NCBI GenBank assembly: GCA_964387845.1
Contig: CAYLXA010000001.1
Coordinates: forward strand, 256,001-320,000
DNA: 64,000 bases
Source: an uncultured bacterium
GTDB lineage: Bacteria; Omnitrophota; Omnitrophia; Omnitrophales; Abzuiibacteriaceae
Reading direction: 5' to 3'
Position 1 is the stretch's first letter; each line of letters opens with the position of its first letter. This document shows positions 18,436 to 63,000 of the stretch, piece by piece. Both the position numbers and the translations under genes were made by a program. The notes beneath the pieces are model-generated. The model was not told the DNA's origin. It worked only from the letters and a program-made list of their open reading frames with translations, and did not search any database.

Positions 18436-18637
18436 CAGATTGGTGGCAAAATTCTATCACATTTCTCTATGCAAACTGATGTGAAATAATCAGTTCGCAG
18501 GATTGGCTTAACAGTATAAATACGGCACTTTTAAGCCGTTTTTTGACTTATGATGGAATTTGAAAACAGGAGAGTTTAGCTGAATAACATTGCTGATTGT
18601 GAAATGGGTGCTATAATAAAAACGTGGCTAGAGAGCG

Positions 18638-18697
18638 CTCGACCCGGCACGGAAGAACCTCTCAGGGCATTAAGCCTTTTCGCCACGCTTGACTAAT
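18638..18697. repeat. Copy 2 of the conserved ~60-nt intergenic element
   Basis: ggctagagagcgctcgacccggcacggaagaacctctcagggcattaagccttttcgcca. About 90% identical to 9953..10015. Confidence 0.6.
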
Positions 18698-26691: not shown

Positions 26692-27063
26692 ATGAAAAAG
26701 ATACTCATTATCGACGACGAACCCGAGATTTGCGATGCGGTGGCTGAATTCCTGAAAGAAGACGGCTATGAAACCATTGTCGCGCACCGGGGCCATGAAG
26801 CGCTTGATAAAACACTCAAAGAAAAGCCGGATCTTTTGATTTTAGACGTCGCACTGCCGGATGTGGACGGCACGGTGGTTTATGAGACGCTCCGCAAGAT
26901 TCCCGAAACCAAAGAGATCAACGTGATTTTCCTGACCGCACTGGCATCGGGAGCGCCGCAGCAATTTGTCGGCGTTGACCGCGCACACTATTCCCTGCTT
27001 TCAAAACCGGTTGAAGTCGAGGTTCTTCGGCAAGAAGTCGTGCGCATGATCGGCAAGCCATAA
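26692..27063 (+). CDS. Single-domain response regulator, 123 aa
   Basis: KILIIDDEPEICDAVAEFL...LLILDVALPDVDG...IFLTAL...SKP. Confidence 0.75.
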   Translation: MKKILIIDDEPEICDAVAEFLKEDGYETIVAHRGHEALDKTLKEKPDLLILDVALPDVDGTVVYETLRKIPETKEINVIFLTALASGAPQQFVGVDRAHYSLLSKPVEVEVLRQEVVRMIGKP

Positions 27064-27077
27064 AACTATGATATTTT

Positions 27078-27168
27078 CCCTCTCCCTCTGGGAGAGGGTC
27101 AGGGTGAGGGAGATATCTTCTAAACTATCACCCTCATCCTAGCCTTCTCCCTCTAAAGAGGGAGAAGG
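27078..27168. repeat. Copy 1 of a tripartite palindromic intergenic element (tccctct-ggg-agaggga / agggtgaggg...ccctcatcct / ccttctccctct-aaag-agggagaagg) between convergent genes; likely a bidirectional terminator or REP-like repeat
   Basis: Three consecutive hairpins are read directly. A second copy at 47119..47210 is about 85% identical. The 3' hairpin encodes the last residues of the adjacent TrmH-like ORF. Confidence 0.6.
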
Positions 27169-27698
27169 AATATTTGAGAAAGCCCTAAGCTTTCCGCAAT
27201 CCGGTAAGCCAAAATTCCCGCAGCCACCGAAGCATTTAAAGAATTTTTCTCACCCAACATCGGAATTTCAACCGCCAGATCGGCAATTGAAACCAGGCTC
27301 TCATCAACGCCCGTAACTTCGTTTCCAATCACCAAACAAACCGGCGCTTTGGGTTTTGCTTCAGCATACGAAATACTGGAATTTGTGTGCTCAAGCACGA
27401 TGAGCTGAGTTCCGTTTTCTTTCAAATGGTTTGCAATTTCAAATGCATCCGCGCGATATTCCCACGGCACGGACATTTCGGCACCAAGCGCTGTCTTTGT
27501 AATCATCCGGCTTGGCGGCTTTCCGGTAATGCCGCATAAATAAATTTTCTCGGCGCGGATGCCGTCCGCGATTCTGAAAATGGCGCCGACATTGTGCAGG
27601 CTCCGGATATCATTCAAAAGAAGCGAGATTGGATTGCGTCTAGCGGATTGATTCTGCTCACGTAATCTGAGGATTTCTTCGTGGGTGAGTTTCTTCAT
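27153..27698 (-). CDS. SpoU/TrmH-family RNA 2'-O-methyltransferase, 181 aa
   Basis: SPOUT motifs LIVLEHTNSSISYAEA, LVIGNEVTGV, LNASVAAGILAYR. Confidence 0.8.
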   Translation of the reverse strand: MKKLTHEEILRLREQNQSARRNPISLLLNDIRSLHNVGAIFRIADGIRAEKIYLCGITGKPPSRMITKTALGAEMSVPWEYRADAFEIANHLKENGTQLIVLEHTNSSISYAEAKPKAPVCLVIGNEVTGVDESLVSIADLAVEIPMLGEKNSLNASVAAGILAYRIAESLGLSQIFLLPL

Positions 27699-38859: not shown

Positions 38860-38965
38860 TTGTGAATCAAATGGAAAAACAGGGTCAGGTGCCAAGGGTC
38901 ATGGGTCAAGGCACAAATGAACGGTTACTCTTGCCTTGACCCTTGCTACTTGCCCCTTGACCCTA
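38860..38965. repeat. GGGTCARG / CCTTGACCC palindromic repeat cluster (gggtcaggtgccaagggtcatgggtcaaggca ... tgccttgacccttgctacttgccccttgaccc) between nrdJ and the SDR gene
   Basis: Read directly. It belongs to the same family as 23245..23324. Confidence 0.55.
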
Positions 38966-44137: not shown

Positions 44138-44139
44138 AG

Positions 44140-44200
44140 TTTTAAGTCGTAAGTGGTAAGGGCTAAGTTATTCGATCGCTTAACACTTACCACTTATCAC
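44140..44200. repeat. Structured palindrome (gtaagtggtaagggctaag ... cttaacacttaccacttatcacttatccc) filling the folC-mnmE spacer
   Basis: The inverted repeat is read directly. It has the same short-unit architecture as the GGGTCAAGG family but a different sequence. Confidence 0.45.
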
Positions 44201-45541: not shown

Positions 45542-47104
45542 TTAATGTTTGAAATGACGTTCGCCGGTAAAAACCATGGCAATGCCGTAATGATCGCAGG
45601 CCGCGATAACTTCCGAATCTTTAATCGAGCCGCCCGGCTGAATGATGGCACGGATACCGTTCTGATGGGCGACTTCGATATTATCCGGCATCGGGAAAAA
45701 CGCATCACTCGCAAGCATGCTTCCGCGCGACCATGATTTTGCTTTTTCGCAGGCCAATTTGACGGCATCGACCCGGGACGTCAAGCCGCCGCCGATTCCC
45801 ACGGTCTGCGTTCCGCGCACAAGCACAATCGCGTTTGACTTCGTGACTTTGACGCAGCGCCAAGCAAAAAGCAGAGATGCCAATTCTTCTTTCGACGGCT
45901 TTGATTTCGTAACGGTTTTCAAATTTTTATTCAGCCTGGCTAAATGATGGTCAATCGGGTCGTCTCGGTCCTGCAGCAAAACGCCGCTTTTCACGTACCT
46001 CAAATCATACGGCCCGATGTGGCGAAACTCTGGCACTTCAATAACGCGGAGATTTTTACGCTCCTGGAATATTTTGAGTGCTTCTTTTGAAATTTTAGGC
46101 GCAACAACGACTTCGAAGAAAGTAAGTTTGGCAAAAAGCATCCGCGCAGCAGCGGCCGTCACTGGCTGATTGACGCCCACAATACCGCCGAACGCCGAAA
46201 GCGGATCGCAATCGACAGCCTGCGCAATCGCAGTTTCCAGATCCTGATTCACGGAAATGCCGGAAGGATTGTTGTGCTTCACCACACACGCCGCGGTTTC
46301 TTTGAATTCGCGCATGATGTCGACCGTTGCATCGATATCAAGAATATTGTTATATGAAAGTTCTTTGCCCTGAAATTGAGTAAACGAAAATTTGGGCGCC
46401 GAATCAAGCCGCGTGTAAAGCGCCGCGCGCTGGTGCGGATTTTCGCCGTACCTGAGCGTGGCGGATTTCTTAAACGGAACGCTCAAAAATTCAGGCAGGC
46501 CTTCTTCTTTCACAAATTGCTTTTCAAGATAATGCGCAATGGCATGATCATAAGCCGATGTATGCTGAAACGCTTTCAGAGCAAGTTTCTCTAGCGTTTC
46601 TGCCGATAATTTTCCGCCGTTCTTCTGCAATTCTTCAGCCAACACTGTGTAATCCGCTGCATCGGTAACGACCGCAACCGATTCGTGATTCTTCGCCGCC
46701 GAACGGATCATCGCCGGGCCGCCGATGTCGATATTTTCAATAGCTTCGGCCAGTTTCACCTTCGGATTTTTGACCGTTTCCTGGAACGGATAAAGATTGA
46801 TGACCACCATATCGATCGGCTGAATGCCGTGCTGTTTGGCTTGTTTGGCGTGCGATTTAAGGGAACGCCGGAATAAAATGCCGCCGTGAACTTTGGGGTG
46901 AAGGGTTTTGACGCGCCCGTCCATCATTTCAGGAAAGCCGGTAAGATCCGAGATATTTTTAACCTTGAGACGCGCTTTCTTGAGCGCCGCCTCCGTACCG
47001 CCGGTTGAAATCAACTCAACGCCTAATTTGGCAAGCGTTTTTGCGAAATCCACGACGCCGGTTTTATCGGATACGCTGATGAGTGCGCGTTTAATTTTTG
47101 CCAT
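45542..47104 (-). CDS. purH: Bifunctional AICAR transformylase / IMP cyclohydrolase PurH, 520 aa
   Basis: MAKIKRALISVSDKTGVVDFAK...GGTEAALKKA...VVINLYPF ... GGIVGVNQPV... are canonical PurH blocks. Confidence 0.95.
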   Translation of the reverse strand: MAKIKRALISVSDKTGVVDFAKTLAKLGVELISTGGTEAALKKARLKVKNISDLTGFPEMMDGRVKTLHPKVHGGILFRRSLKSHAKQAKQHGIQPIDMVVINLYPFQETVKNPKVKLAEAIENIDIGGPAMIRSAAKNHESVAVVTDAADYTVLAEELQKNGGKLSAETLEKLALKAFQHTSAYDHAIAHYLEKQFVKEEGLPEFLSVPFKKSATLRYGENPHQRAALYTRLDSAPKFSFTQFQGKELSYNNILDIDATVDIMREFKETAACVVKHNNPSGISVNQDLETAIAQAVDCDPLSAFGGIVGVNQPVTAAAARMLFAKLTFFEVVVAPKISKEALKIFQERKNLRVIEVPEFRHIGPYDLRYVKSGVLLQDRDDPIDHHLARLNKNLKTVTKSKPSKEELASLLFAWRCVKVTKSNAIVLVRGTQTVGIGGGLTSRVDAVKLACEKAKSWSRGSMLASDAFFPMPDNIEVAHQNGIRAIIQPGGSIKDSEVIAACDHYGIAMVFTGERHFKH

Positions 47105-47118
47105 TTTTGTTTCCTAAT

Positions 47119-47210
47119 TCCCTCTCCCTTTGGGAGAGGGCTAGGGTGAGGGATTTCTATAAATCCCACCACCCTCATCCTAACCTTCTCCCTCTAAAGA
47201 GGGAGAAGGG
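47119..47210. repeat. Copy 2 of the tripartite palindromic element (ccctctccctttgggagagggctagggtgaggga...caccctcatcctaaccttctccctctaaagagggagaaggg)
   Basis: About 85% identical to 27078..27168. Again the 3' hairpin encodes the last residues (SLEGEG) of the upstream ORF. Confidence 0.6.
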
Positions 47211-48007
47211 ATAAATCGTTTCATTAACCTGCTTGTTATAACGCCCGGAATTTCCGTGCCGATTTGACGGCCATCGAGCGACCGCACCGGCACGATGATA
47301 CCTGTTGAATTGGTTAAAAAGGCTTCATCCGCATTAAATACATCGTGACGCGTTAAGAAGGATTCTTCCGCCGAAATACCCAATTCGAGCGCATATTTTA
47401 ACACAAAACGGCGGACGACTCCATTCAGGATTCCGGCTGTGGGAGGCGTTTTCAACGCGCCTTCCTTCACCATGAAGAAGTTCCAGACTCCGGCCTCGCG
47501 TACATACCCGTCTGGCCCCAGATAAATCCGGTCAAACGAATCGGTACAATCTAAAAAAGCAAGCAGCCCATTGACCAGATCGCCTGATTTTGCTTCCGGC
47601 GGAACGCTGTTTGAGAGGTTGCGCCTCACAGCGGAAGTTTTAAGATCAACGCCTTCCCGATAAATCTTTTCGGGATAAGAGCGCACGGATACGATCGTGA
47701 AAATATTTTTCTCCGAAACAGCCAGACGAATTGAATGGTTTGGATTTTCTTTGGCGATTTCGGCAAGTTCTTTTTCAATCCGTTCACGTTCGGTGGGAAC
47801 TTCAATCCCTGAAGTTTTTGCGGATTCAAACAAACGGTCCAAATGTTCATTCAAATGCAGAATTTTACCGCTCCGGGATTGCATGGTTTCGAAAACGTTT
47901 AATCCAAGCTCCGCCGGCGATATTATAGGAAGCTCTGCCGGTTTTATCTGTTTTCCGTTGATAAAGAGAAGCATATCCGTAAGTGACATGGGAAAAGTAT
48001 AAAGCAA
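47180..48007 (-). CDS. Class-IV (fold-type IV) PLP aminotransferase: branched-chain aminotransferase or aminodeoxychorismate-lyase-like, 275 aa
   Basis: Fold-type-IV layout with EAFLTNSTGIIVPV and LNGVVRRFVL blocks. The neighbouring folC/purH genes favour, but do not prove, an ADC-lyase (PabC) role. Confidence 0.7.
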   Translation of the reverse strand: MLYTFPMSLTDMLLFINGKQIKPAELPIISPAELGLNVFETMQSRSGKILHLNEHLDRLFESAKTSGIEVPTERERIEKELAEIAKENPNHSIRLAVSEKNIFTIVSVRSYPEKIYREGVDLKTSAVRRNLSNSVPPEAKSGDLVNGLLAFLDCTDSFDRIYLGPDGYVREAGVWNFFMVKEGALKTPPTAGILNGVVRRFVLKYALELGISAEESFLTRHDVFNADEAFLTNSTGIIVPVRSLDGRQIGTEIPGVITSRLMKRFIPSPSLEGEG

Positions 48008-48030: not shown

Positions 48031-51000
48031 TTATGCGGAGTAGAAAACCTGCATTTGCGCGCGGAACTTGCCGACCAAATATGCCGCGGCTGATAATACA
48101 TGGTCCACAAACGCTTGGTTCCAGATTATGACCTTGTCTGCGATTTTTTCAAGAAATGGAACGGCAACCGCGTCATCTGAAACACCGATAATGGCCATGG
48201 AAAGACCGAGATTTCTAAGTTCGGCGCGCGCCTTGTGGTAATCCTCAACGGGAACAATCCTATTTTTTGGATTTGCAATGGTTGCATTAATCTCGTCGAT
48301 GACGCGAAGCTCTGCGCGGTTTGTCACGATCACCATGTAAGAACCGTAAACATCCGAAAGATTCCGGCCAACCACAGCCAGACTTCCCTTTTCGCCGAAG
48401 AAAGCGTTACGCGTAAACACTTTCCCTTCCCGCATCTCTGATCGATTTTGAAGTGCTGTAACAATCTGATTGTCAAAACTGCGAGCGTTTGACACAATCC
48501 GGCGCATTTCGCTTCTCGCTACCGGTGCAATCTCAGTTTGCAAATCTCGGAATAACGGATTTTCTTTGACTTCAACTCTTCCTTTAGCAATGGTTTTTTC
48601 AGTCTTTGCAATGACGCGGAAATTAAAAACTGTTTCACCCGAAACTTCGGACTGCACCTTGGCCATAATTAGCGGGAGCCCCAAAACTTCGCTTTGCACC
48701 TTGTCTCCGATTTCAGTATTATTGAAAGCATCTGCTTGATTTAGAATCGACTTTTCAATCGCGCTTTGAAAATCGATTGGTTTGATTTTTTGAAGGCTTT
48801 CCGGCAGCAATTCCTTGTTAATTTCGCCTTCCAAATGAATACTGACATCATAACGGCTTCCAATTGTCTTTTGAGCGATTGTAAAATTCCGGTGTTCGCT
48901 TGTTAGCGATTTGACGCCCGCCTGCTCATAAAATTGAGCATCAATAACGGGAACCTCGCGGTCTGCGATCTCTTCTAAAATCCGGACCGCGCGATGAATA
49001 TATTTAGCGTGCCGGAAACTTCTTCGCTCATTTTCGCTCAGAGTCAAACTCCTGTTTTTCATCTGCAATTCCGAATACCAGCGCCGGAATAACTTCATAA
49101 TTTGAATCAGCGAAAGCGGCTGGTTAGCGCCGAGCGGATTGGATGAATTTTGTTCGTAAATTCTATTAATATCTGTCTCGCTTTGAGCTGTCCAGCTTGA
49201 TTTTTCCTGATTTAAAACCGCTTTAAGTACCGGAATATAAAAACCTGTGTCACGCTCAATCCACCAATTAAGCACATAAAGAGCGGCGAAGCGCGCAGAT
49301 TGGCGCAGCATATCCGGATTAAAGTTTTTAGGCGCTACTTCAATGAGCGGTTTCCATTCATCAACCGGAATAACCGGTTCAGCTAAGTATTGAAGCAGTG
49401 TTTCGAGGCCAACCTCATTTCCTTTTCCAAGCTCATCGGCTCTTGTCTTCCGGATTGTAAAATTAGGATGCGACAAATTTCTAAGAAGTTTTTGCACCGA
49501 ACGCAGTTCTGATTTTTGGCTGCCGGCATCAGGCCCAGGCATCGGCTCTGTCAATTTTTGGAAACGTTCGGCCAATTCGGTTTCTGAGATTTTAAACATT
49601 TCGTCAACAAACGCTTCGGAACCGCCAAGCTCCCCTCCGTCTTCTCCGAATAAACGGACTTCGACTAACTCATGAAACGCAACGGCAAATCTTTCGGCCG
49701 ATATCCTTTCTTCATCCGTTTTGAATTCAAACTGAAAAGCGAGACGCGTATCCTTAACCGCTTCAAGCGTCATCAAGGCCATCGGATTATCCGCTTCGAT
49801 CCATTCAGCACTCCCTTTGTTCAGATTTTTGATCTTAACAGAAACATTTTTTGCTAGGGCGGCTTGCGCCATTTCGACAATGAACATCGCTGGACTCGCA
49901 TGGACACCTTGCCGGTTCTTGACCGTAACATTGATCTCAATGCTGTTACTTTCCCCTTCCCGCAATTCCGACATGTTTCTATCAGTCGGCGTTACGGACT
50001 TTTTATATTCATTAATCTGATGATCGAGAAAAGCTTCGTAACTATCAATGGCCTGGCTTGTTTGCGCCAACCACTCTTCTTCTTCTTTCAATAATAGGCC
50101 ATGTTCTTCTTTCATTCCCTTCAAAGCAGACTTTGCTTTTCGAAGCTCTGGTAATATTCTGAGATAATAATCGTTCGCTTCCGCGGCTAGAGAATTGCCT
50201 CGATCCGAAACTGACAAAATAAAGCTGCTGAAACGATTCAACAAAACTTCCGTGCGGCTCAATAAAATCTTAATTCTGAGCTGCTGTTCATCCAAAGCGA
50301 TTCGCCTCGGTTTGATAAGAGAATAATAAAGGAGCGCTCCGACTCCTATGCCTATCGCGCCCGCTGAAATACCGATAACGGTATAATTTCGTAATTCAGA
50401 ACGATGTTTAGGCGGACGGGGAAAACTTTGAAAAGGCCCCCTGCGCGCAGCGCGGACAGCCTGAATTCTCGCCGTCACTTCTTCAATAGTATCTAAGTCA
50501 CCGGCTAATTCTGCGTTATGAAGCTCGACTTCCAATCTTGCCAAATCCGTCGAGTGATGCGATTGGTCTACAGCAAACGGAAGCTCGATCGGCTCCTCAT
50601 TTTCCAAATCATTGCGCAGTTCCGAACGGACACCGGATTTTTCGCGAGGCGGCTGTTCAGATTTCGGCGGAACCGGGATCCATCCTTCCCACCGGCGGTA
50701 AACATGCGTAGGCCGCGTCCCTACTTCATTGGAAATATTTTTACCGCGCACGCCATGAACCTGATGGGCTTCATCACGCCGTAAAACTTCGGCTCTTTGT
50801 GCACGAAAATAATCATCCGTAAAATGAGTGATTTCGCCGGTTTTTAAGCCCGCGCGGCGCCAGTCAATGTGCCCTTCGGGATGAACAACACGCATATCTT
50901 TCTTCAGTACCTGCAAAGCTCCGGAAAATGCGGCGTGATTAAACAAAATAACTGTTTTCCCGCGATACTGCTCGTTCATGCGTTTCCAAAAAGCGGCGGC

Positions 51001-54000
51001 GCGGATGATTAAATGGGCAAAACTTTCGCCATGCTCAGGTTTCGCCAAAACACTCCACTTTTGATAACTTCGCGCGGCCTTGAATTGTTCCCGGCCAAAC
51101 TGCGCCTTAATTTGCTCATTGGTGAGCCCTTCCCATTCGCCTTGAAAAATTTCTTTTGTATCGGGATCAATCATCACTTTCAGTTCAATTCCTAATTTTT
51201 CACGTACCAACCGGATAAATGGTTCTGCCGTATCCCGCACACGCCCAAGCGGATTAATGATCACCACAAACTGATCCGGATTTGCTGTGATTTGGTCTTT
51301 AAACTTTTCAAATAATTTTTCAGCGTCAGCTTGCGCTTGCACGCGCCCTTTTGGCGTCAACTGCGCGCCTTCGTTATCCATACCGCTTCCCTGAAACCTC
51401 TTTCTCCCTGTTCTTAGCCCTTCCGCAATGATGTGAGTTTCTCCGTGGCGGATAACGTAAAGATCCAGATCAAGCGCCGGTGGGAAATAAGGCTCTTTAT
51501 AAAAAAGCTGCCCGGTCGATTGATTGACCCAAAAACCCATTTGTTGCAATGTTTCGGAAACATTTTTTCGCAATTCCACCCTCGCCTTCATTAATAAATC
51601 CGGCTGTATTGCACTGGTCGGAACCACAAGTTTGCCGTTTTCCCAATAGACCAGCGCACTCAAAAACTGGAACATGACCGGATCATGTTTTCTCACAAAA
51701 TCAGGGTCAAGCCAGTAAAGAGACTGGGCTTCAAAGAAAAACTCTCGCGCAGAAACAATGCTGTATCGGCTCAAAAACTGCGTTTCAATTTCTTCTTGAG
51801 AATAATCAAGCACCTGCTTCTTTTTCCCAAATTGCCTTTCAAGTGCCTGCAGCCTAGTCTCATAAATCCGTTTTGCAATCTGATAAACTGCTGTTTTATC
51901 GTGTGGAATGTTCACAATAGAGAGTGGTAAATTTTTATTCGCAAAATGCTCTAAGCGCTCAAAGTTAATCGGCAGCGCATACTGATTATGCTCAACGAGC
52001 GTTTCCGCAAGTTCGTGAGTCAGGAGCCGTTCTAAATAAGTAAAGTCCTTATCCCTCACCTTCAAAAATTCATCGCTCACTGGCCCGTCATAGGAGATCG
52101 GATGATCGCCCGCATAAAGTGAAAGAAAGATCGATTTAACATTGGACAGCACAGGATGAAGGGAGTGATAGGTAACGCCTCCCAAATGATCTCCGTTGCG
52201 TCTTACGATAGAACGCGCAATAAATACTTGGGCATTGAGCATTTTAAAAAGCGGTGCAATTGCAATGCCGGCCCTATGGCTTTCAAGGAAATGATTGAGC
52301 TGGCCATATAACTTACGCGCTAATCTCCAGTCGGTTTCACTGTTTAATCCATGCAATACATCAGTCCGAATATGTGCAGAAGAGCCTTGTAGATAACCCA
52401 AAACAATTTGACGCAATTCCGCCCTTGCCCCCTTTGAAGAAACATTTTCATGATCCGCTGGGGCCGAGGGGCTTTCTTGTAGTTCTTGCAAAATTAATAT
52501 CACTTCGTCCGGAAGTCCTAATGCGCTTAAAGCATCCTTGGCGCTTTCGAGCTGATGAAAACTGAAATGATCCGCAAATCTTTCTGCGCGAGACTTATTT
52601 CCCAGCAACCCTGTCAAAAATGGGATAGCCAACTCACGAAAATGAATGCACCATGGCTCCGCTTGAAGAATCCGGTTGGTCAGATAAAGCAGTTTTTTAA
52701 GCTGTTTAAACGATAAATCGCTATCTTGAAGCGCGGCACGGATTGCGTCATGGCCTGCATCCAACAACATAGTCTTAGGGGCAGCACTTTCCGCTTCGGA
52801 ATTCCTGAGCTCGGAACGTATGGCTCTAGATTTAATAGCAACGCTGCCGAGATACACATTGCCGCTCTGGTGATAAAGAAGCGGGTTTTCGTGGCCATCC
52901 ATGCTGATAACGTCTCCATCCGCGATATCACGGCCGGCGATGAGCCAAAGATGCTTTTCCGGCTGGAACACCATGTCCGGAACGCCATAAACGGCCGAAA
53001 TGCCTTCTTTCTGCGCCAGCGTTTCCGCATGCACTGAAATGGTCTTCGCTAAAATATGAACCCCTTTTGGAATCCGGTTAATCATTTCGGGATTCACTCT
53101 GTCCAAGATCAAAATAACGCCGTCAACATCCGCTCGGGGATGAGAAACAAGTTCGCCCAAAAGCTTTTCCGCTGCTTCTATCGAATTAGCCGCCAAACCG
53201 CGAATCGCACCGCCGCTCACGCCATGGCCGCGCGCAATCGGCTGATTGTCAGTCGAGTCGGCAAATTCCGGATATTGATCCGTCACAAAATCATCATTGC
53301 TTTGGACAATCCATATCTTTCCGCGCTCAATCGTGAATTCAAACTGCTGGTTGTAACGGAAAATGTTCTTGAGCTTACGCGCGTACTCGAACACTTGTGC
53401 GTAAAGCTCCGGCTGCAATGCTTCAAATGTTTGTTCATCCGGCCGGATTCGCTCACCATTTCCGATTAAAATGTAATTTTGGCCGGCACGGCTCATCAAT
53501 TGATCGCCGATCGAGTGAAACCGAAATTTACCTTGGAGCACGTCATGGCCGTCCGGAAGTGTTCTCAAAACTGCGTGCCCCGCGCCTGAAATTTTCCCGT
53601 CATCAGTCGGCTTTAAATTTCCGAAAACGCCTTTCTGCAGAATAACGACCGTTCCCCACTCTTGCGAAATCTGATGCCGTGTACGATACGCGCGTGCCTC
53701 TTCGGAGTCCCACGATGCATAAACCGCTTCGACTGCCATCATGACCTGATCCATCATGTCGTTTGGAATTATTTTGCCGTGCCGCGCCACGATTGCTTTG
53801 CACTGTTCCACCACTGCCTTCATGCCGTCTGCCGACAAATCTTCCTTTTCTTTAACATTCAAAACCTGCTCAAATTCCGCCTCAGGAATACCGAGCACAT
53901 TGATCGAAAATGACCGGATAAATTCCGCGTAGGTGTCATACGCAAACCACGCATCGCCGCTTTTTTGGGCAAGCGCTTCGGCTTCCGCGTCGTTCATGCC

Positions 54001-57000
54001 CACATTCGACACAGTAGCCAAAAGGCCGGGCAGCATGAAAGCAGAACCGCTTCGCGCGTACAAAATAAGCTTGAGGTCGGGATACTCGGAGTAGCGTTTG
54101 AGCCGTTCGATTTCGGCTGCGATTTTTTGACGGAATTCGTCCGACCTGAAAATGTCGGGTTTCGTCACTAACTTGGCGCTCAAGATGACACCCGGCGGTA
54201 CGGGAATCCTCTCGTGCGTCATGCGGATCAAGTTCAGGCCCTTTTTGCTCCAAAGCGAGAGAAGTTCCGGCCGTTCATCCGTTTCATTTTCGCCAAACCG
54301 GTACAAATGTTGCTCGAAATCATCCGGCCTTTCCGCGCCGGCATCCTCACGGATGGCTTCGTCCTGGCCTTGCGAAAGCGCAGAAGCGAGAACAGCATCA
54401 AATTTCATGAGCGCGCGGTCAAATGCCGTCGCGCCGGAATTCCGGATCAGCTCATCAATCACCGCGGCTTCAAGTCTCTCTTTTCCTTCAGGCGGAAAGT
54501 CATAAATTTGATAAGTCTGATCATCCTCTGTTTTGGTTTTGATTTTAAAGAGGCTGGTATGTTCGCGCCATAATTTTGCCAGATCGTGATAACCAACTTC
54601 ATCCAAGCTGTATTGCATGGCCGCGCGCATGGTGTTATTTAGTTGCCGGGTAATTTTGTGGACTTCGGCCTCAAGCGTGTGGACCAAATCGTAGAGCTGC
54701 GACGCCTTAATGCTGCCCGAATCAAGCTCAACCATCAATTGATCAAAATCGACACCACCCAGCCCTGAAGCCTGAATAAACCGGCCGAGCGCAATGAGAT
54801 TGGGCAATTCGCGCCGCAAATCGTCTACAGAATTTATTTTTTCAATCTTTTCCTGGACGTGAGCAATCTTTTCCGAAGCTAAAATCGATAATTTCTCGCT
54901 CATTTCAACCAACGTGCGTAAATCATATAGATAATCACCTTCTTCATGCATATCGTTCCACTCCTGGTCTATATCATCCGCATCCTCATCGGCCGAATCT
55001 TCGCCGTCCCGCCCAATGCTCTTCTCTGCCTGTCCCAATACTTTTTTCTGATTTTCCTCTCCGGAAAGCAAAAACTCTTTAAGATCATTTTGCACTTTCA
55101 CGATGGCGGAGAAAATGGCCGCATGATCATCAGAATCGATCAACATAAGCAGCCGATCGTAATCCTCCCGCATAAACCGGGTAATGGCCGTCATTTTCTT
55201 TTTCAAGTACCCACCGTCACGCAGATCTTCAGTTTCTCCTTTTAAGAAAGGAACGATCGTCGCGACGCGAGTTCCGAAATGATCCGCAAAAGCCAAATAA
55301 AGTTGAGTCATTAATTGAACGCGTTCATAGTCAATCTCGGACACATCTTCATCCCGGTTCGCTTCTTCATAAATCGCGACTACTTCACGCTCCGGAATGT
55401 CCAGGATTTCATCCAGAAAAGCCTCCGGATCGCTTTTGCTGATTTTCCCTTTGGCCGCAAGCGCTTTGACAAAACGGTTCAAGAGTTTTGAATAAGTTTG
55501 AAGAGTCGCTGGATTGAAATCTTTTGTCATATCATCCCGCAGCAGAGTCCAGTTGCTTTCCTTTAAAATAGACTCATCAAGCGTCAACCAATAAGCAAGA
55601 ACTCTTCTCGTATTCTCAAAGTCACTTCTATTCAAGTTTCGATGAATACCGTCTCTAAAATGGCTGAACCATCCGCGGCCAAACTCGCCGGGATAAGAGG
55701 CATTATTATCAAGCCGTCTTGAATAGCTGATAATACGGTCCTGCGAATTATCCGTAGAGACGCCGCCCTTGCGTTCGGCTTCGATGACTTTCATTAAATA
55801 AAAATAGGCCGCTCGGGCGTTTGGTTGATGGAGCAAATACAAGGACATCTGCGGATACTCTATGCGCTTTCTGCCTTCGCTTGGAATATCACGCACAAGG
55901 CCTTGGGCTGCCACAAAAGCAGCGGCAAGCGGATCCGCCGGTGAAACGCTCAGCAAGATAGAAATCAGTTCCCTGAAAAATTCGTGGCCTATGGTTCGGA
56001 GGTGCAGCAGAAGGTGAATCAGTTTACCCAAGTCGTCAGGACTTGCTTGGCGGAAAGTTGCTTCTAAATCATGGTGGATATCAGCTTTGATGTAATGCTC
56101 ATTAAAGTAAGCGGCTGCCAACTCAAGAAAAATCCGGTTCTCTTCCGGCGAATTTGTTTTAGAGAGGTAAATCGGAATCAAATGCTCTTTAAAGAAAGCA
56201 TCCGTCATTCTATAGCGGTCGGGCGACATCGCGCTCGACACGTACCACAAGTAGCTCTGTTTCTTATCCAGCGGTAAATCTGCTTTTAAAATAAACTCGC
56301 GAATCAAATTCTGCAGATGCTCTTTAGAATTTTTTTTAAGTAGGTCGATAATCGCCTCTTTCCTCGCCCCGACGGCTTGATTTTGCTCAAACGACAGGTG
56401 CTTGCCGCCTCTTCCAAAACTTAGTTTCATGAGTGTTTGGTAATCGCGCAGCGCTTTTTCGAATTCTTTATAAGACATTGGGTTTGTACGACCGTCCGAC
56501 CTGAGCTCGGAACGTTTTTGGGCAGTAAGTGTTTTTAAATTCGGAAAAAGTGTGCGGAACGGTTCGCCGAAAAAGAGGCGGCGTCGGACAGCCTCTTTGC
56601 GGCGATGAATAAATGCGGCTTGAGTCGGAAAAATAAGATGCCTCGGCAGAGGAGCGTATTTTAAATAAACAGGAGCTGATGTATTGATACCAACATTTAA
56701 TTCCGGGTCTTGCAAATTCGGCAGCGGAAGCGTGAGCACCGCATCCCGCAGAGGATTTTTACTGCGGTCACCGATTGTGCGAATCAGCATGCTGGCTTGA
56801 ACCTCGCTTACATCCCACGGTGAACGGAATCCCAGCCGAACCCAGTCAGATTCATTACGCGATAAAACTTCCGCGACCAGTTTTTCTATTTTTTCATTCG
56901 AAATTTTTCGGCCCGTTTCAACACCGTTCTGATCCAGTTCGGGAACATCGGTCAGCATCCGGCTTAGATATTCCGTCATGGATTGTTTTCCGGTGCGGCG

Positions 57001-60000
57001 TTTTGTATCGTCCGGCCAAAATCTGGCGCCATACTTCAGTGAGAATATTTTTACGCCCAGATCTGTGGATCTGTAACCAAACTTCCAATCATGAACGTCT
57101 TGATCCAGCATGACCGATAAGGCCCATAGCATCAAATTTCGATACGTGAAACCCGGATAAGACTGCGAGAATTTTCGTGTAGACGGCGGTATATCGGCCA
57201 AACGTTCTTCGGGCCATGCCGATACAACACTAATGAACCGCTTGACATAATCGGCCAGCAGCTCGTTGTCCGAGGGTTTCTTGATTTCTTTCCCGTCAAA
57301 TTCCTCAATATGAAGACCGGTCGGACGCAGATGTATGACTTGCGTCAAGCCCAATGTCCAGTAAGCGTAAAATAAATCCTCTAAACCACCCGCAAGCAGA
57401 TGATCCAGACGGCCTGCAAATTTTTCAAATTCGTCCAGGTCTTTGAAATAGGGATCGATTAACGTTGCCAAAAATTGGTTGAGGTTGCCGAATTTCTTGT
57501 CAAGGCCCCGGTTTTCCCATTCCCGGCGCAATTCGACGCCGAGCTCGCGTAATTCCCTATTCGAAAATCCTTCGGGCAATACCTTGCTCCAATAAATGCG
57601 CCTGTCCTCTGAGCCGCTTCTGGGCCAAAACCGATTGGAGTCGTGCGGGCTCAATAGAAACGTCAGAGCTTCAAGGATATCGCCTTCCGTCAGACTGTCA
57701 TAAATCTTATTCGGAGAGCCCGCTTGATCCATCAAATCGCGAATCACATCCATAACTTGATCGACTTTTGAACGTTGGGTGACCGCGGCAGTTTGCCTAA
57801 GTTCCGAACGGTTTTTCAGAATTTGCCGCCGTTCTTCGAGCGTAAAAAATTGTTTTTCGTAAGCTCTTTTTGCGGCTTCCCGGATTTTTCTATTAAACCG
57901 GTCTAAATCAGTTATTTCCTTCTTTAAAAAATCAAGCCACTGTTTTGGTTCAATGGTCATTTCCCCGAAAAATTCGTCGCTCAAAAGCATCAACAGCTGC
58001 ACAAATGCGACTTTGTACAAAGGATCTTCCTGATCCAAGGCAGCCCGCATCGCATCTGATACCGGAAGTACCGGATTCAGATAAGGGAACAGGATTTGAG
58101 CCGGATAGGACGACCGGATTAATTCATTCAATTTAGCTTCTACTTCAAAGTAAGCATGGGCCAACAACCCCTGCTGATCGCCTTCATACCCGCCCAGCGC
58201 ATGAGCCAGCAAACTTCCGGGACGCAGGATAGCTTTCATCACATTAATCCAATAGAGCGATGTTGAGTAATCGTTTTCTCCCTTATAAAATTCGTTTGCA
58301 AACACATAGGCATCGGAATGGCTAAGTTCCTCCTCTAAAACTCCGCTCCGGTATAATTGTGCGACATACCCATAATCGCCCAAACTATAAAAATGCATTT
58401 GAATCCAATCTCGTAAGTAAGCGACGGGTGATTGATCAAAATTGGGAAATTGATACTGGCCCGTTTCATATAACTTTTTCAAATTTTGGTAATAATCAAA
58501 ATTTTCTATCGAAGGAACGTCGGTGCCTTCAATAATGACAATATGCCTGTCTTTCGCAAATGCACTTAGGTAACTGTCGCTCTTTCCGTCTCTCGATTTG
58601 AGGCGAACGGTGTAAACCGGAACAAACCGGCCTGCCGCAGAGCGCTGAGATTCCCTTTTGATAATTTTACCGACCAAGAGTCCGCTGCCGTTCACTATGT
58701 CCACGATCAGGCCACGTGGAATTAAAATATCGTCCGCGATTTTTGTTCCTATTTTTCCGATATCATAAATAGAAATCAAATCTTTGTGGCCAAATGAAAA
58801 AGCGGCATCAAAATCCGGTGAAAGAGGCCTGAGAACCTGGTTGAATGTTTCAACGGCCTCAAGACGGTTTAAGTCATTTAGACTGGCTTTTTCGACTAGG
58901 TACTTTAGCTTCGGCCAATAGCTCACCCAAAACCATTCCACAACATCAAAGCTGGGGCTATCCGGATTTAGGAGCCTAAACTCTCTGATTAAGTTGAGAA
59001 TTTGATTCGCCTGGCTGGTGTTGAGCGTGATCTTTCCGCGCAAAGCTTTGATAATGCCTTGCGCATTTAAATTTTGAGTTTCCAAAAATTCTTTCAGAAC
59101 ATCTACGGTAAAAAAGCGTTTAATATTTTTTACGCTTAATTTCGAAATGATGAGAGCATGCAGCGTTTGAACCGGATCCGTATTTACTGCTTGTGCCGTC
59201 TGATTGCGCAATTCAGAGCGGAGTAGCTCAGACTGCGGGGCAGCGGTTTGACCTTGCAACGGGATTTCCCAGAAATTGCGGGCGTTGCGGGCAGAATCGA
59301 AGAATGCTCTGGCTTTCGCACGGTTGCCTTTGGTTAACTCGAATAATCCAAAAATAATTGCGTAAGCTCTTTCCGTAAAGCTACGCGACTTTTTTAGCAC
59401 AAAGTCACGGGCCAGCCACCGGTAACGGAATGCGTCAAAATGATACTGAAAACCGGCTTCCGGATCGTGAATCTTTTTAATTGTATTGCGCGAGGCTCCC
59501 TGAGAGTAGTGCTGATCTAAATAATCGCGGCCGTAGTTGGTAATCCCTGCATAGATCTTCTTAAAGCCCGAACGCCGCGCGACATCTTGAAGAATCTGAA
59601 TCGCTTCCGGCATCAGTTCATCGAAATATTTTGCACCGTCATTGTTAAACTCGAAACTGTTGACCGTTAGTACCGGATCTCCATTGTCTTCCGATGCAAT
59701 CATCCACATCTGTGCCCGATGCTGATAGGCATCGCCTGAACCCTTGTGATCGATGTCCGCCAGGATAATTCCGTCGTCACTCAGGAGAGAGGGCAAAATC
59801 CAGGAGACAAAATGCTGCAGAGAAATACAATTTCCGATGGCTTCACTTGAAGTGAGAAAATCTATCGCGCCTTTCAGGGTCTTTTTGTCGTGAATTCTTA
59901 TTCGAATTCCCTTTTCTTTATTTTCGTAAACCCTGCCCTTCTCAAATTCAGAAACATTGATGCCGATTGCCTGCATTTTTTTCTCAATGGCTGAAACATG

Positions 60001-63000
60001 GCCTGTTTTGCGAAGTCTTTCTGACAAATAATCACGCAATCTTTTGTAATACAAAATTCCGGGCGCAATATTGAGCCGCGTGCTGATCAAAAAAGTTCCT
60101 GGCGCGATAATTCCCATCAAAATAAAAAACAAGGCAGCATTTGAAATGAGAGGATAAATGGTAAAAACGCCGAACCCGACCAGAAACGCGAAAGCGGTCG
60201 GCGCCACCCAAGCATAAATGGGCCTTGGCGGCTTTCTAAGGCCTTTCAAAATGCGTGGATTCATCGTGACAATGTCGAGAGCATCTGCAATGCTGATCCC
60301 GAGTGCGCGCCGCACTTTGGCAATTTCGGAAATTTTCATGCGGCTCAGGCGCGTGGCTTTCATAAATTTCTGAACCGCCATGAGTTTGTCAAAAGCGTCT
60401 TTTTTAAGACTGTCCCGCACCGCTTTGTCTTCGGAAAGCCTGCGCATAGCTTCTTGATTTGAGGCTGACCAGACTACGGCAATAACTTCTTCCGTTTTTT
60501 TCCGCTGGTCAGGCGAAAGTTTATCCAAAAACTTAAGCACATTGACGAGATCGCCGTCTTTAACGGACACGTTGTACAGAATTTCTTCAAAAAAGTACCG
60601 CAAATTCCGGTTTGGACTTGGAAAATATTCGAGCAACTTTTCAAGTTTCGCGATTGCGCGCGGAGGATAGCTCATTTTCTGCGCAACGGGATTTTCATTA
60701 ATTTCAGCGAGAATGGTTTCGATAAATTTTGGATATGCGCGGAGCTCGGATCGCTGCTCATCGGTTTTTTTTGCGATTGCCCTCCTTTCAGACTTATGCT
60801 GAAACCACCACATTCCTCCAAAAAGAAGCAGAAGCGGCGGGATCAAGGAAGCATTGTCCGTAAGCCAGGCAACGGGCCCGGTCACAACAAGAACAAGCGA
60901 GGCTGTAATTGCCTTAAGAAAATATTGTTTCCGGAACTTAAACCACCACGTTTTATACTGAGTCGGAAAAATCTTAACGCGGTTCGATGGTTGAATTAAA
61001 TCCGTTACATAACCAATCACTTCACCTTTTGGGAAAGCATACTCCAAAGGCTCGACCGGATACCCATAAACGTCTAAATATTGTTTTTGGGAAGGATCGG
61101 CATATTCGATCGATACAAGCTCGGGCTGTTTGCCGGATTTCTTAACATAATCGACAAGCCTCTTAGGCCCTTGATTGAGCGGATAAGCAAAATAAAGAAC
61201 TGATTTAAATCCGCATGCCCGGGCATAGTTCTCGATGATTTTTTGAATTCCCTTCGCCTTTGCATCAAAAATTCGCCCCTCCACACCGTCCACAAATAAA
61301 ATCGGCTGTTCTTTTCCGTCTTGATCCTTATAAATCGCGGCGGCGATTCTGGCCCGTACCCGGCGGCCTTCGCGCGTACGGAAATCAATCGCTGAAATAC
61401 TTTTGTTGTGCAAATAATTAAACGGGCCCAGCGCACCTTTTGTTCTCCGGTTTAATTTGTCAAGCCACGTGTTGCCGCGAAGCGACGCCGAAGAAAAGAA
61501 ATCCTTTTGATTGGTTAAATCAAACCACGGATCGCGCCGCCAAATCCGGGCTTCTACAATTGAGTCCGGTAAATTTCCCCAATCGTCAATCTTGGAGATA
61601 CTTTTCTGAAGGTATTGATTGGCCTTCGCGGCATTGGGGTTTACATATTGGCCCAGCTCTTGCAGCAACTTTTTTCCTTCCTCGACAGGCAATTCACCTC
61701 TTTTATTCCTGGCCAATTCTTCTTTGTGCGCATTGAAAAATTGAGTGACCGACTTCTTACCCTCCTTTAAATTGGGCGTGTACTGTCCGGGCTTAAACTG
61801 GCGGTCTTCGGTTGAACCCAAAAAATCCCTGAGTATTTTCTGGATAAACTCGGGGATGGTTTGATTTTCCGCGTCTTCGAATTCCCCTGCCGGTACTTTT
61901 TCAATATTATCCCCGCGAATTTGATAATAGACTTTGTAATCCGGATTATCCCAATTTTCGTTGATGCCGACCGATTTGAGACGCTCCATGGTTTGAATCG
62001 CTGCCTCGGTCTGGTCAAACCATTGCCGGTAACTTCGCCGCTTAAGCATGGAGGCCAGATCCAACGCGGAAATTGTTTTCCACGAAAAAATGAACATTCG
62101 TTTCGCAAATACCGCCAAAATGTAAACCAAGGCTGTGAAACCTGACGCCACAAACAAGCTTTCAATCCATCCTGCGGGATCAGAATTGTTGATCATTTCC
62201 CTAATATTTAAGCTTGCTAAATTTCCATCCATCCAAAAAGAAATAGCGGAATAGAAAATTGTGAGCGCTGCGCGTTGAACCGAAGCATAGAAATATCCAA
62301 TAACGCCAGTGAAGGAAACCGCGAGAAGATGCAGCCACGGGTTCTGAATGAGCGCCGTACGGGCGTGCGCAATCCGTGCGCGTTCTAATTTTTCTTCGTT
62401 AATTTTGTTCAAGTCAATCTTTAAACTTTTAAACTTTTTCCACAAAAATTTCAGCTCCGGGAAACCGTCTTTCTCCATCCGCTCGTCGATTTCGGCAATG
62501 GTGAGATCTGAATTCTCACGCAGTTCACTGGCTGCCTTTGGATTTTTGCTTTTTCCGTTTCCGGAAAAAGCGTTGCGCGTCAGAACACCGATCGTTTTAA
62601 ACACCAGCGCGGTGTTATAAAGTGCCGACCGGTCCCGGATATCGTTTAACTCCAGCTCTATGTCATGCGTGTCCATGCCAAACTTTCCGGTTCCGATACC
62701 CCGCTTTAGAGCGCTTGAGCTGAGAAAACCCGGCTTGGTGTGATGTAAAACACTTTCGATATAATTTTGATCAACTTCCAAAGGTAAGCGCGGCCTTGGC
62801 CCAAACCATTGCATGTCACCGCGGACAATCGACAAGAGCTGCGGAAGCTCATCAAGCCCCGTTCTGCGCAAAAACCATTCGTAAGGCGTAATGCTTTCAT
62901 CTGAAATGTTGAAATCAAGTTTCATGGTTTTAATTTTTCGTATCACAATCGTCTTGCCCTGAAAACCGATTCGCTCTTGAATAAAAAACATGGGGCCGCT

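Follow-up and report, generated by a model that had tools for sequence, protein, structure and literature searches.

BoxC-type inverted pairs at two tight gene junctions in an Omnitrophota genome

Why do two genes in a 64-kb stretch of Omnitrophota DNA end inside nearly the same palindrome? The stretch, which was analysed as a whole and is called the window below, contains two copies of the element: copy A at 27076-27172 and copy B at 47118-47213. Each copy is ~95 bases long and zero would be expected by chance. The palindromes named in the original prediction are present at both sites. The third hairpin, CCTTCTCCCTCTAAAGAGGGAGAAGG, is identical in the two copies, for which shuffled sequences gave an expectation of 0.00. 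No further match to this hairpin was detected in the 64 kb with up to 3 mismatches allowed. The junction motif GGGAGAGGGYNAGGGTGAGGG is found on both strands of both copies (0.01 expected). According to the repeat finder, copies A and B are 92% identical over the left 36 nt and 95% identical over the right 44 nt.

Anatomy and family of the element

Each copy is an inverted pair of units, of ~33-38 nt, with a 19-20-nt spacer between them. Within a unit, a loop joins the pyrimidine arm (CCCTCTCCC) to a purine arm (GGGAGAGGG), and 3 nt further on comes a mirror purine arm (GGGTGAGGG). The parts of the two copies are as follows.

27078..27110, + strand: copy A unit U1, CCCTCTCCC-TCT-GGGAGAGGG-TCA-GGGTGAGGG
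27111..27130, no strand: copy A spacer, 20 nt, A+T-rich
27131..27168, - strand: copy A unit U2 (variant), CCTTCTCCC-TCTTTAGA-GGGAGAAGG-CTA-GGATGAGGG
47120..47152, + strand: copy B unit U1, CCCTCTCCC-TTT-GGGAGAGGG-CTA-GGGTGAGGG
47153..47171, no strand: copy B spacer, 19 nt
47172..47209, - strand: copy B unit U2, CCTTCTCCC-TCTTTAGA-GGGAGAAGG-TTA-GGATGAGGG

The spacer sequence differs between copies A and B and is not conserved. The element is small and non-coding, and it encodes no protein. RNA folds of the elements, on both strands, have predicted energies of -56 to -61 kcal/mol and z-scores of -5.4 to -6.2. The predicted fold alternates between three hairpins and one long hairpin. The middle hairpin consists of the paired tails of U1 and U2, and hence a single long hairpin fits equally well. 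Three consecutive hairpins had been proposed; such folds are indeed seen, but two inverted units, with their tails forming the middle hairpin, are the better description.

Relative to the unit tail, the long U2 hairpin has its loop in either orientation (CTAAAG or CTTTAG), with the arms unchanged. Loci L259, L262, L263, L266 and L268 form one orientation group; the window, L155, L260 and L264 form the other. The loop can evidently invert without any change in the arms.

The unit fits a pattern published as TM_ECO: CCCTCNCCC N3-6 GGGNGAGGG N3 GGGNGAGGG, with one mismatched triplet tolerated (PMC4666352). That paper equates TM_ECO with the BoxC repeat of the 1990s and with the PIT (potential intrastrand triplex) element of Hoyne/Maher 2000. 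Holder (2015) counted 3610 such motifs in 262 proteobacterial genomes and 23 in E. coli K-12 (PMC4666352). The same sequences were described by Kaplan (2016) as HPG1/HPG2 (HPGQ), which switch between G-quadruplex, hairpin and duplex (PMC5100583). In both window copies, U1 is an exact fit to the TM_ECO pattern. U2 departs from it by one coordinated change in all three arms, from C-G.G to T-A.A at position 3, and the triad scheme is kept.

A 109-nt query covering the whole pair aligned to E. coli at the BoxC pair between hrpB and mrcB (75% identity, 88% of the query length), and it matched 4205 of 5426 E. coli genomes. The hrpB-mrcB pair has the layout of the window copies (unit, spacer, inverted unit), and RefSeq carries no annotation for it. 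Inverted pairs of two unit types were found in both window copies and in 30 pairs at other loci. The exact fit of U1, together with the alignment to the E. coli pair, shows that the family is already known. By their sequence, both elements are assigned to the BoxC / PIT / TM_ECO / HPGQ family of E. coli and other bacteria, which supplies a name for a repeat that had at first gone unrecognised.

Searches of Rfam at gathering thresholds returned nothing at either element. Permissive E-values gave only generic miRNA-hairpin noise, a weak sX13 and a weak whalefall-1 (RF01762). The last of these is a metagenome-only motif that gives the same sub-threshold match at 27076-27111 and at 47118-47153. 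Like U1, it has a CUCUCC/GGAGAG hairpin with AGGGUGAGG downstream, but the model has 24 nt where U1 has 3. With 18.0 and 18.3 bits for U1 in the two copies, against a gathering score of 37, membership was rejected. The motif is at most a distant look-alike, and it may share a remote ancestry with the BoxC unit.

Gene junctions with and without the element

The window is very compact, with many genes overlapping or abutting. Copy A lies at a junction of convergent genes. Here, a SpoU/TrmH-like ORF (27153-27698, minus strand) ends in ...SQIFLLPL, of which FLLPL is encoded by U2. Its TAG (27153-27155) is in the loop of hairpin 3. The corresponding junction in two relatives (L243 and L246, among loci L243-L248; SpoU 80% identical) has a SpoU gene of 190 aa and a convergent response regulator gene of 123 aa. 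These genes overlap by 63 nt and the element is absent. Alignment with L243 and L246 delimits the following features.

27064..27179, no strand: copy A whole insertion, 116 nt, made up of the element and the A+T-rich ends AACTATGATATTTT and AATATTTGAGA
27055..27063, no strand: flanking duplication copy 1, AAGCCATAA, the final codons and stop of the response regulator
27180..27188, no strand: flanking duplication copy 2, AAGCCCTAA, encoding SpoU L-G-L on the minus strand
27010..27060, - strand: remnant of the ancestral SpoU tail, GAT CAT GCG ... CGG TTT TGA = DHAHDFLPKNLDFNRF*, now separated from SpoU

Copy A is thus flanked by an imperfect 9-nt duplication, identical at 8 of the 9 positions. 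The duplicated sequence is single-copy in the relatives, where the other strand reads [CT]TAGG[GC][CT]TT. SpoU has lost 17 residues and gained SQIFLLPL. The loss is outside the conserved SPOUT core, at a place where more distant homologues already end. The DNA of the ancestral tail persists because, on the opposite strand, it codes for the last part of the response regulator. The closest SpoU homologue (93% identity) has the longer tail and keeps the ancestral PDHF..K motif; no element was found past its stop, in the 25 nt that its contig extends there.

Copy B lies between a class-IV aminotransferase gene and purH. The aminotransferase ORF (47180-48007, minus strand) ends in ...PSPSLEGEG, and its TAG (47180-47182) is between hairpins 2 and 3. 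The whole U2 hairpin is translated as PSPSLEGEG, and the stop is made of loop 2 and the first G of the third arm. In relatives L249 and L252 (among loci L249-L254; 70% and 69% identical), the aminotransferase gene shares 11 and 14 nt with purH and there is no element at the junction. The boundaries of copy B were set by manual, codon-based realignment; automatic alignment puts the gap in the wrong place. The window aligns up to ...AAA CGA TTT and picks up again at AAACAAAAATGGCAAAAATTAA, which gives two further features.

47113..47212, no strand: copy B whole insertion, 100 nt, from the manual codon realignment with the relatives that have the 11-14-nt overlap
47084..47112, - strand: purH start region, AAACAAAAATGGCAAAAATTAA..., matching the overlap region AAACAAAATGGTCAAAATTAA of L252; a remnant of the aminotransferase tail, KQNGQN*

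No duplication is visible on the flanks of copy B. The end of the insertion, CCTAATT (AATTAGG on the minus strand), contributes the AGG of an AGGAAAC just upstream of the purH ATG. This AGGAAAC may be the purH ribosome-binding site.

Where homologues of the two flanking proteins carry an organism name, it is Candidatus Omnitrophota. As had been claimed, the element supplies the stops at the 3' ends of minus-strand genes in two different frames (SQIFLLPL and PSPSLEGEG). The orthologues without the element do not share these C-termini. They keep longer tails and overlap their neighbours, so the view that the element was inserted at gene ends and redefined the C-termini stands. All three frames on the strand of the truncated genes meet a stop within 14 codons of entering the element. 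The stops are a TAG in loop 1, a TAG from loop 2 plus G, and a TGA within GGATGAGGG. On the opposite strand, all three frames are likewise closed within the element. Because all frames are stopped, the interrupted genes were shortened only by dispensable C-terminal tails, and the element now provides their ends.

Could the sequence instead be ancestral at both junctions, and have been deleted in the relatives? BoxC pairs in E. coli are often collapsed or deleted. At hrpB-mrcB there are alleles with the full pair, with the pair collapsed to one hairpin in which the outer arms of the two units are fused, and with a short sequence (L255, L257, L258). Furthermore, the relatives with empty sites are only 70-80% identical in protein, so that loss in a lineage is formally possible at copy B. 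Against this, each locus has two independent relatives with intact overlapping genes and full-length tails, and in the window, past the element, the ancestral tails can still be recognised. At copy A, the relatives have only one copy of the sequence that is duplicated in the window. Precise, overlap-restoring deletions in four lineages are also much less likely than two insertions. We regard the ancestral alternative as extremely improbable.

The short hrpB-mrcB allele was considered separately as an empty site and rejected, since 8 unrelated bases stand in place of the element. A 441-nt query from the full-pair allele is covered over at least 80% in 3536 of the 5426 E. coli genomes.

Comparison of filled and empty junctions shows that both elements inserted in this Omnitrophota lineage, into very tight gene junctions. 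One BoxC-type pair entered where SpoU and the response regulator, which converge, overlapped by 63 nt, and the other where aminotransferase and purH overlapped by 11-14 nt. We hold with good confidence that the elements are BoxC-type pairs inserted at two junctions, small and non-coding, with stops that close all frames.

Several other features of the window were recorded. Between a FolC-like gene and mnmE, a different imperfect palindrome, TAAGTCGTAAGTGGTAAGGGCTAAG ... CTTAACACTTACCACTTATCACTTA (44138-44200), fills a 63-nt gap. The same genes overlap by 4 nt in L252, and the palindrome may be a second kind of junction insertion. At 38881-38964 there is an inverted repeat with 33-nt arms (AGGGTCAGGTGCCAAGGGTCATGGGTCAAGGCA / TGCCTTGACCCTTGCTACTTGCCCCTTGACCCT) that are 79% complementary, in sequence unrelated to BoxC. 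Its left arm overlaps the start of a short-chain dehydrogenase gene (38895), and the rest spans the gap to a class II ribonucleotide reductase gene. A 56-nt direct repeat (9952-10007 and 18625-18680; 89% identical; TGGCTAGAGAGCGCTCGACCCGGCA.GGAAGAA.CTCTCAGGGCATT...) is in two of the few long intergenic regions, and might represent a small RNA or a regulatory site. There are also two giant ORFs, both on the minus strand: 48031-63996, which has 5321 aa and runs to the window end, and 1980-8192, which has 2070 aa. The relatives' counterpart beside the aminotransferase is also very long, with 3804 aa called.

Terminator activity and mobility

A bidirectional terminator had been proposed for copy A. 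The broader alternative is a selected 3'-end element, either a bidirectional terminator or an mRNA-stabilising hairpin, kept for its effect on the flanking genes. The very stable RNA hairpins on both strands, and the place of copy A between convergent genes, agree with such a role. Most copies in related metagenome loci also adjoin a gene's 3' end; in a compact genome, however, nearly any intergenic insertion does so. A terminator scan found no intrinsic terminator, meaning a G+C-rich hairpin with a T/U run, at either element on either strand, and a T-run is absent after every hairpin. Copy B is within a co-directional pair, with the purH start 15 nt downstream; a terminator at this place would do harm. 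The relatives do without the element and their genes overlap. In earlier assays of the family, as reported in PMC4666352, promoter and terminator activity were absent. The missing T-run, the position of copy B, the element-free relatives and the negative assays lead us to rate the terminator idea low. The proposal of a bidirectional terminator is therefore not supported, and a selected 3'-end function of either kind seems unlikely.

The element would rather be tolerated or selfish DNA. As side effects, the two gene pairs would be uncoupled and a very stable hairpin would be placed at the 3' end of the upstream mRNAs. Such hairpins may also have a passive effect on mRNA 3' ends.

How such a pair could move is a separate question. 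A REP/BIME element with a RAYT transposase had been suggested, and the alternative that follows is a REPIN, in which a RAYT gene at another place in the genome would copy the REP doublet. REP/BIME and REPIN sequences are short, palindromic, dispersed intergenic repeats that form inverted doublets (PMC3116915 and PMC3733652). The window element is alike in having two inverted palindromic units with a short spacer, in being dispersed, and in differing in presence or absence among relatives. However, the GTAG or CGTC tetranucleotide that defines RAYT-linked REPs, according to PMC3733652, is absent. The hairpin is instead followed by TCAG, CTAG or TTAG, with none before it; this tetranucleotide differs among family members, and loop 2 is variable across 235 units. 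No Y1 transposase (RAYT) was found among the window genes scanned; the scan covered every RAYT-size ORF and, apart from the 2070-aa and 5321-aa ORFs and four others, all the rest. No protein family was enriched next to the units in about 130 genome loci. Moreover, no link of TM_ECO to transposons or mobile elements was found in PMC4666352. RAYT transposition leaves no duplication, whereas copy A has one of 9 nt. REP families are also usually confined to one genus, whereas the BoxC unit is nearly identical across phyla. The RAYT-linked assignment is not borne out, and copying of the pair as a REPIN is very unlikely.

A MITE would have terminal inverted repeats and a target-site duplication of fixed length. 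Inverted ends are present here; the imperfect 9-nt duplication is found at copy A and none at copy B. In the 30 inverted pairs found elsewhere, exact flanking direct repeats were no commoner than in shuffled pairings. ORFs near the units were also clustered. This gave only prophage structural genes at viral loci and common families, such as ABC ATPases and histidine kinases, at genome loci. The TM_ECO motif has been tied to local instability (PMC4666352).

Conservation, spread and relation to known repeats

The three arms were compared in 235 distinct units from all collected loci; the counts below are of sequences, not of independent events.

Position 1, hairpin pair T-A: third arm A in 7 of 7
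Position 1, hairpin pair C-G: third arm G in 217 of 221
Position 3, hairpin pair T-A: third arm A in 63 of 63, partly forced by the search pattern
Position 6, hairpin pair C-G: third arm G in 4 of 4
Position 6, hairpin pair T-A: third arm A in 210 of 211

Thus, the arms covary in mirror fashion at positions 1, 3 and 6. A purine-motif triplex requires this pattern, and neither a plain hairpin nor a G-quadruplex would. Some of the covariation could stem from a few subfamilies having expanded and not from independent events. The conserved property may be that one strand can form a hairpin with an added third strand (triplex) or else a G-quadruplex. The isolated BoxC strand forms a triplex in vitro, and DMS footprinting found no stable triplex in vivo in E. 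coli (PMC4666352). Hence, structure of this kind may play only a passing part, if any.

The E. coli HPGQ motifs have been proposed to act as G-quadruplex/hairpin/duplex switches controlling nearby genes. U1 of the window could be read in this way, since it has four G3 tracts, GGGAGAGGGNNAGGGTGAGGG, which make a formal G-quadruplex motif, and CD shows ion-dependent switching of the E. coli motif (PMC5100583). Conversely, U2 breaks 2 of the 4 G3 tracts (GGGAGAAGG..GGATGAGGG) and yet is abundant and conserved, and the mirror-correlated changes in the arms are of no need to a G-quadruplex. The E. coli motifs were, in addition, without association to gene function (Holder 2015, PMC4666352). Because the U2 variant breaks the G3 tracts, a G-quadruplex was rejected as the main constraint, and we see very little prospect that a regulatory switch explains the window copies.

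The units are widespread. The motif GGGAGARGGNNAGGRTGAGGG was found in at least 120 stretches in viral contigs of 33-73% G+C. Among the matches listed, nearly all are preceded by the complementary arm CCCTCTCCC, which was not part of the search, and a short loop. A 22-mer of the U2 variant was searched in species-representative genomes. The matches listed include Dehalococcoidia, Anaerolineales, Omnitrophota, Nitrospinota, Nitrospirota, Verrucomicrobiota, Desulfobacterota, Melainabacteria, a Daviesbacteria MAG (CPR), Clostridia, and Alpha- and Gammaproteobacteria. Isolates of Bacteroidota (Rufibacter, Nibribacter and Aquimarina) are also among them. Such a spread of the unit across phyla is wider than PMC4666352 and PMC5100583 report. 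The breadth is credible from the isolates and the number of matches, and single matches could be MAG contamination.

Closer to the window, the exact 26-mer of hairpin 3 is present in 11 JGI metagenome stretches, mostly within the same two-unit pair in tight or short junctions. Three of the 11 come from the metagenome that holds the 70% relative. Related metagenome contigs have 1-2 exact hairpin-3 copies per contig of 90-450 kb. L155, from an Omnitrophota MAG, has an almost identical pair, and ORFs end inside the element in L155, in L264 and probably in L261.

Other matches have longer common flanks. In L125, L132, L142, L170, L221 and L229, from MAGs of Opitutia, Nitrospinae/Nitrospina and Emcibacteraceae, the unit runs on into almost the same sequence, gggactttttgcttcctctcccttg, and L132, L170 and L221 have a common ...gcatgagtaaa... 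motif upstream of it. These flanks suggest a longer composite element that would extend across phyla. In one Gammaproteobacteria MAG and its relatives (L127, L145, L150, L189, L200, L222 and L239), a single unit is within longer inverted ends, ccaatcccaataagttgc ... gagaacttattgggattgg. The element with these ends is MITE-like, with the BoxC unit inside.

Tentatively, the BoxC unit could be near-invariant in sequence across most bacterial phyla, including Chloroflexota, as well as in many viral contigs, and still be inserting. If so, copying would proceed via a universal host process or the DNA structure itself, since no transposase is seen within the element or next to it. Closing all frames on entry is a property that lets the element settle in the gene ends of compact genomes.

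For annotation, a BoxC pair accounts for two odd C-termini, ...FLLPL and ...PSPSLEGEG, and translated repeats of this kind yield many spurious peptides of the 'PLPLGEG/ERVRVR' type. The filled and empty junctions show that, in a phylum remote from E. coli, a BoxC-type pair inserted after the split from relatives whose proteins are 70-93% identical. The window element is of a known kind and is not a new system. How BoxC spreads, unexplained since the 1990s, is the only part of the finding that could become important. Two sites, one with a 9-nt duplication and one with none, together with the wide distribution, are concrete material for this.

Two descriptions of the family can be set beside the window copies. 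Like HPG1/HPG2 (PMC5100583), in which the motifs are often paired on opposite strands <50 bp apart, the window copies have a C-rich 5' flank, four G-tracts and opposite-strand pairs at such distances. They differ in that U2 is without four intact G3 tracts and a regulatory role is not evident. With BoxC (PMC4666352), the window copies share the three-arm unit, the inverted pair of two unit types (there are five such pairs in E. coli), a lack of associated transposase, and presence or absence that varies between relatives. The differences from E. coli BoxC are the host, which belongs to Omnitrophota and has about 45% G+C, and U2, which is a triple-substituted variant (CCTTCTCCC/GGGAGAAGG/GGATGAGGG) with a longer hairpin. 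Finally, the E. coli copies are reported as always intergenic (PMC4666352), which is a descriptive property and not a definition of BoxC, whereas the window copies overlap coding ends, with 16 nt of copy A and 30 nt of copy B inside ORFs (stops included), and give those ORFs their stop codons.
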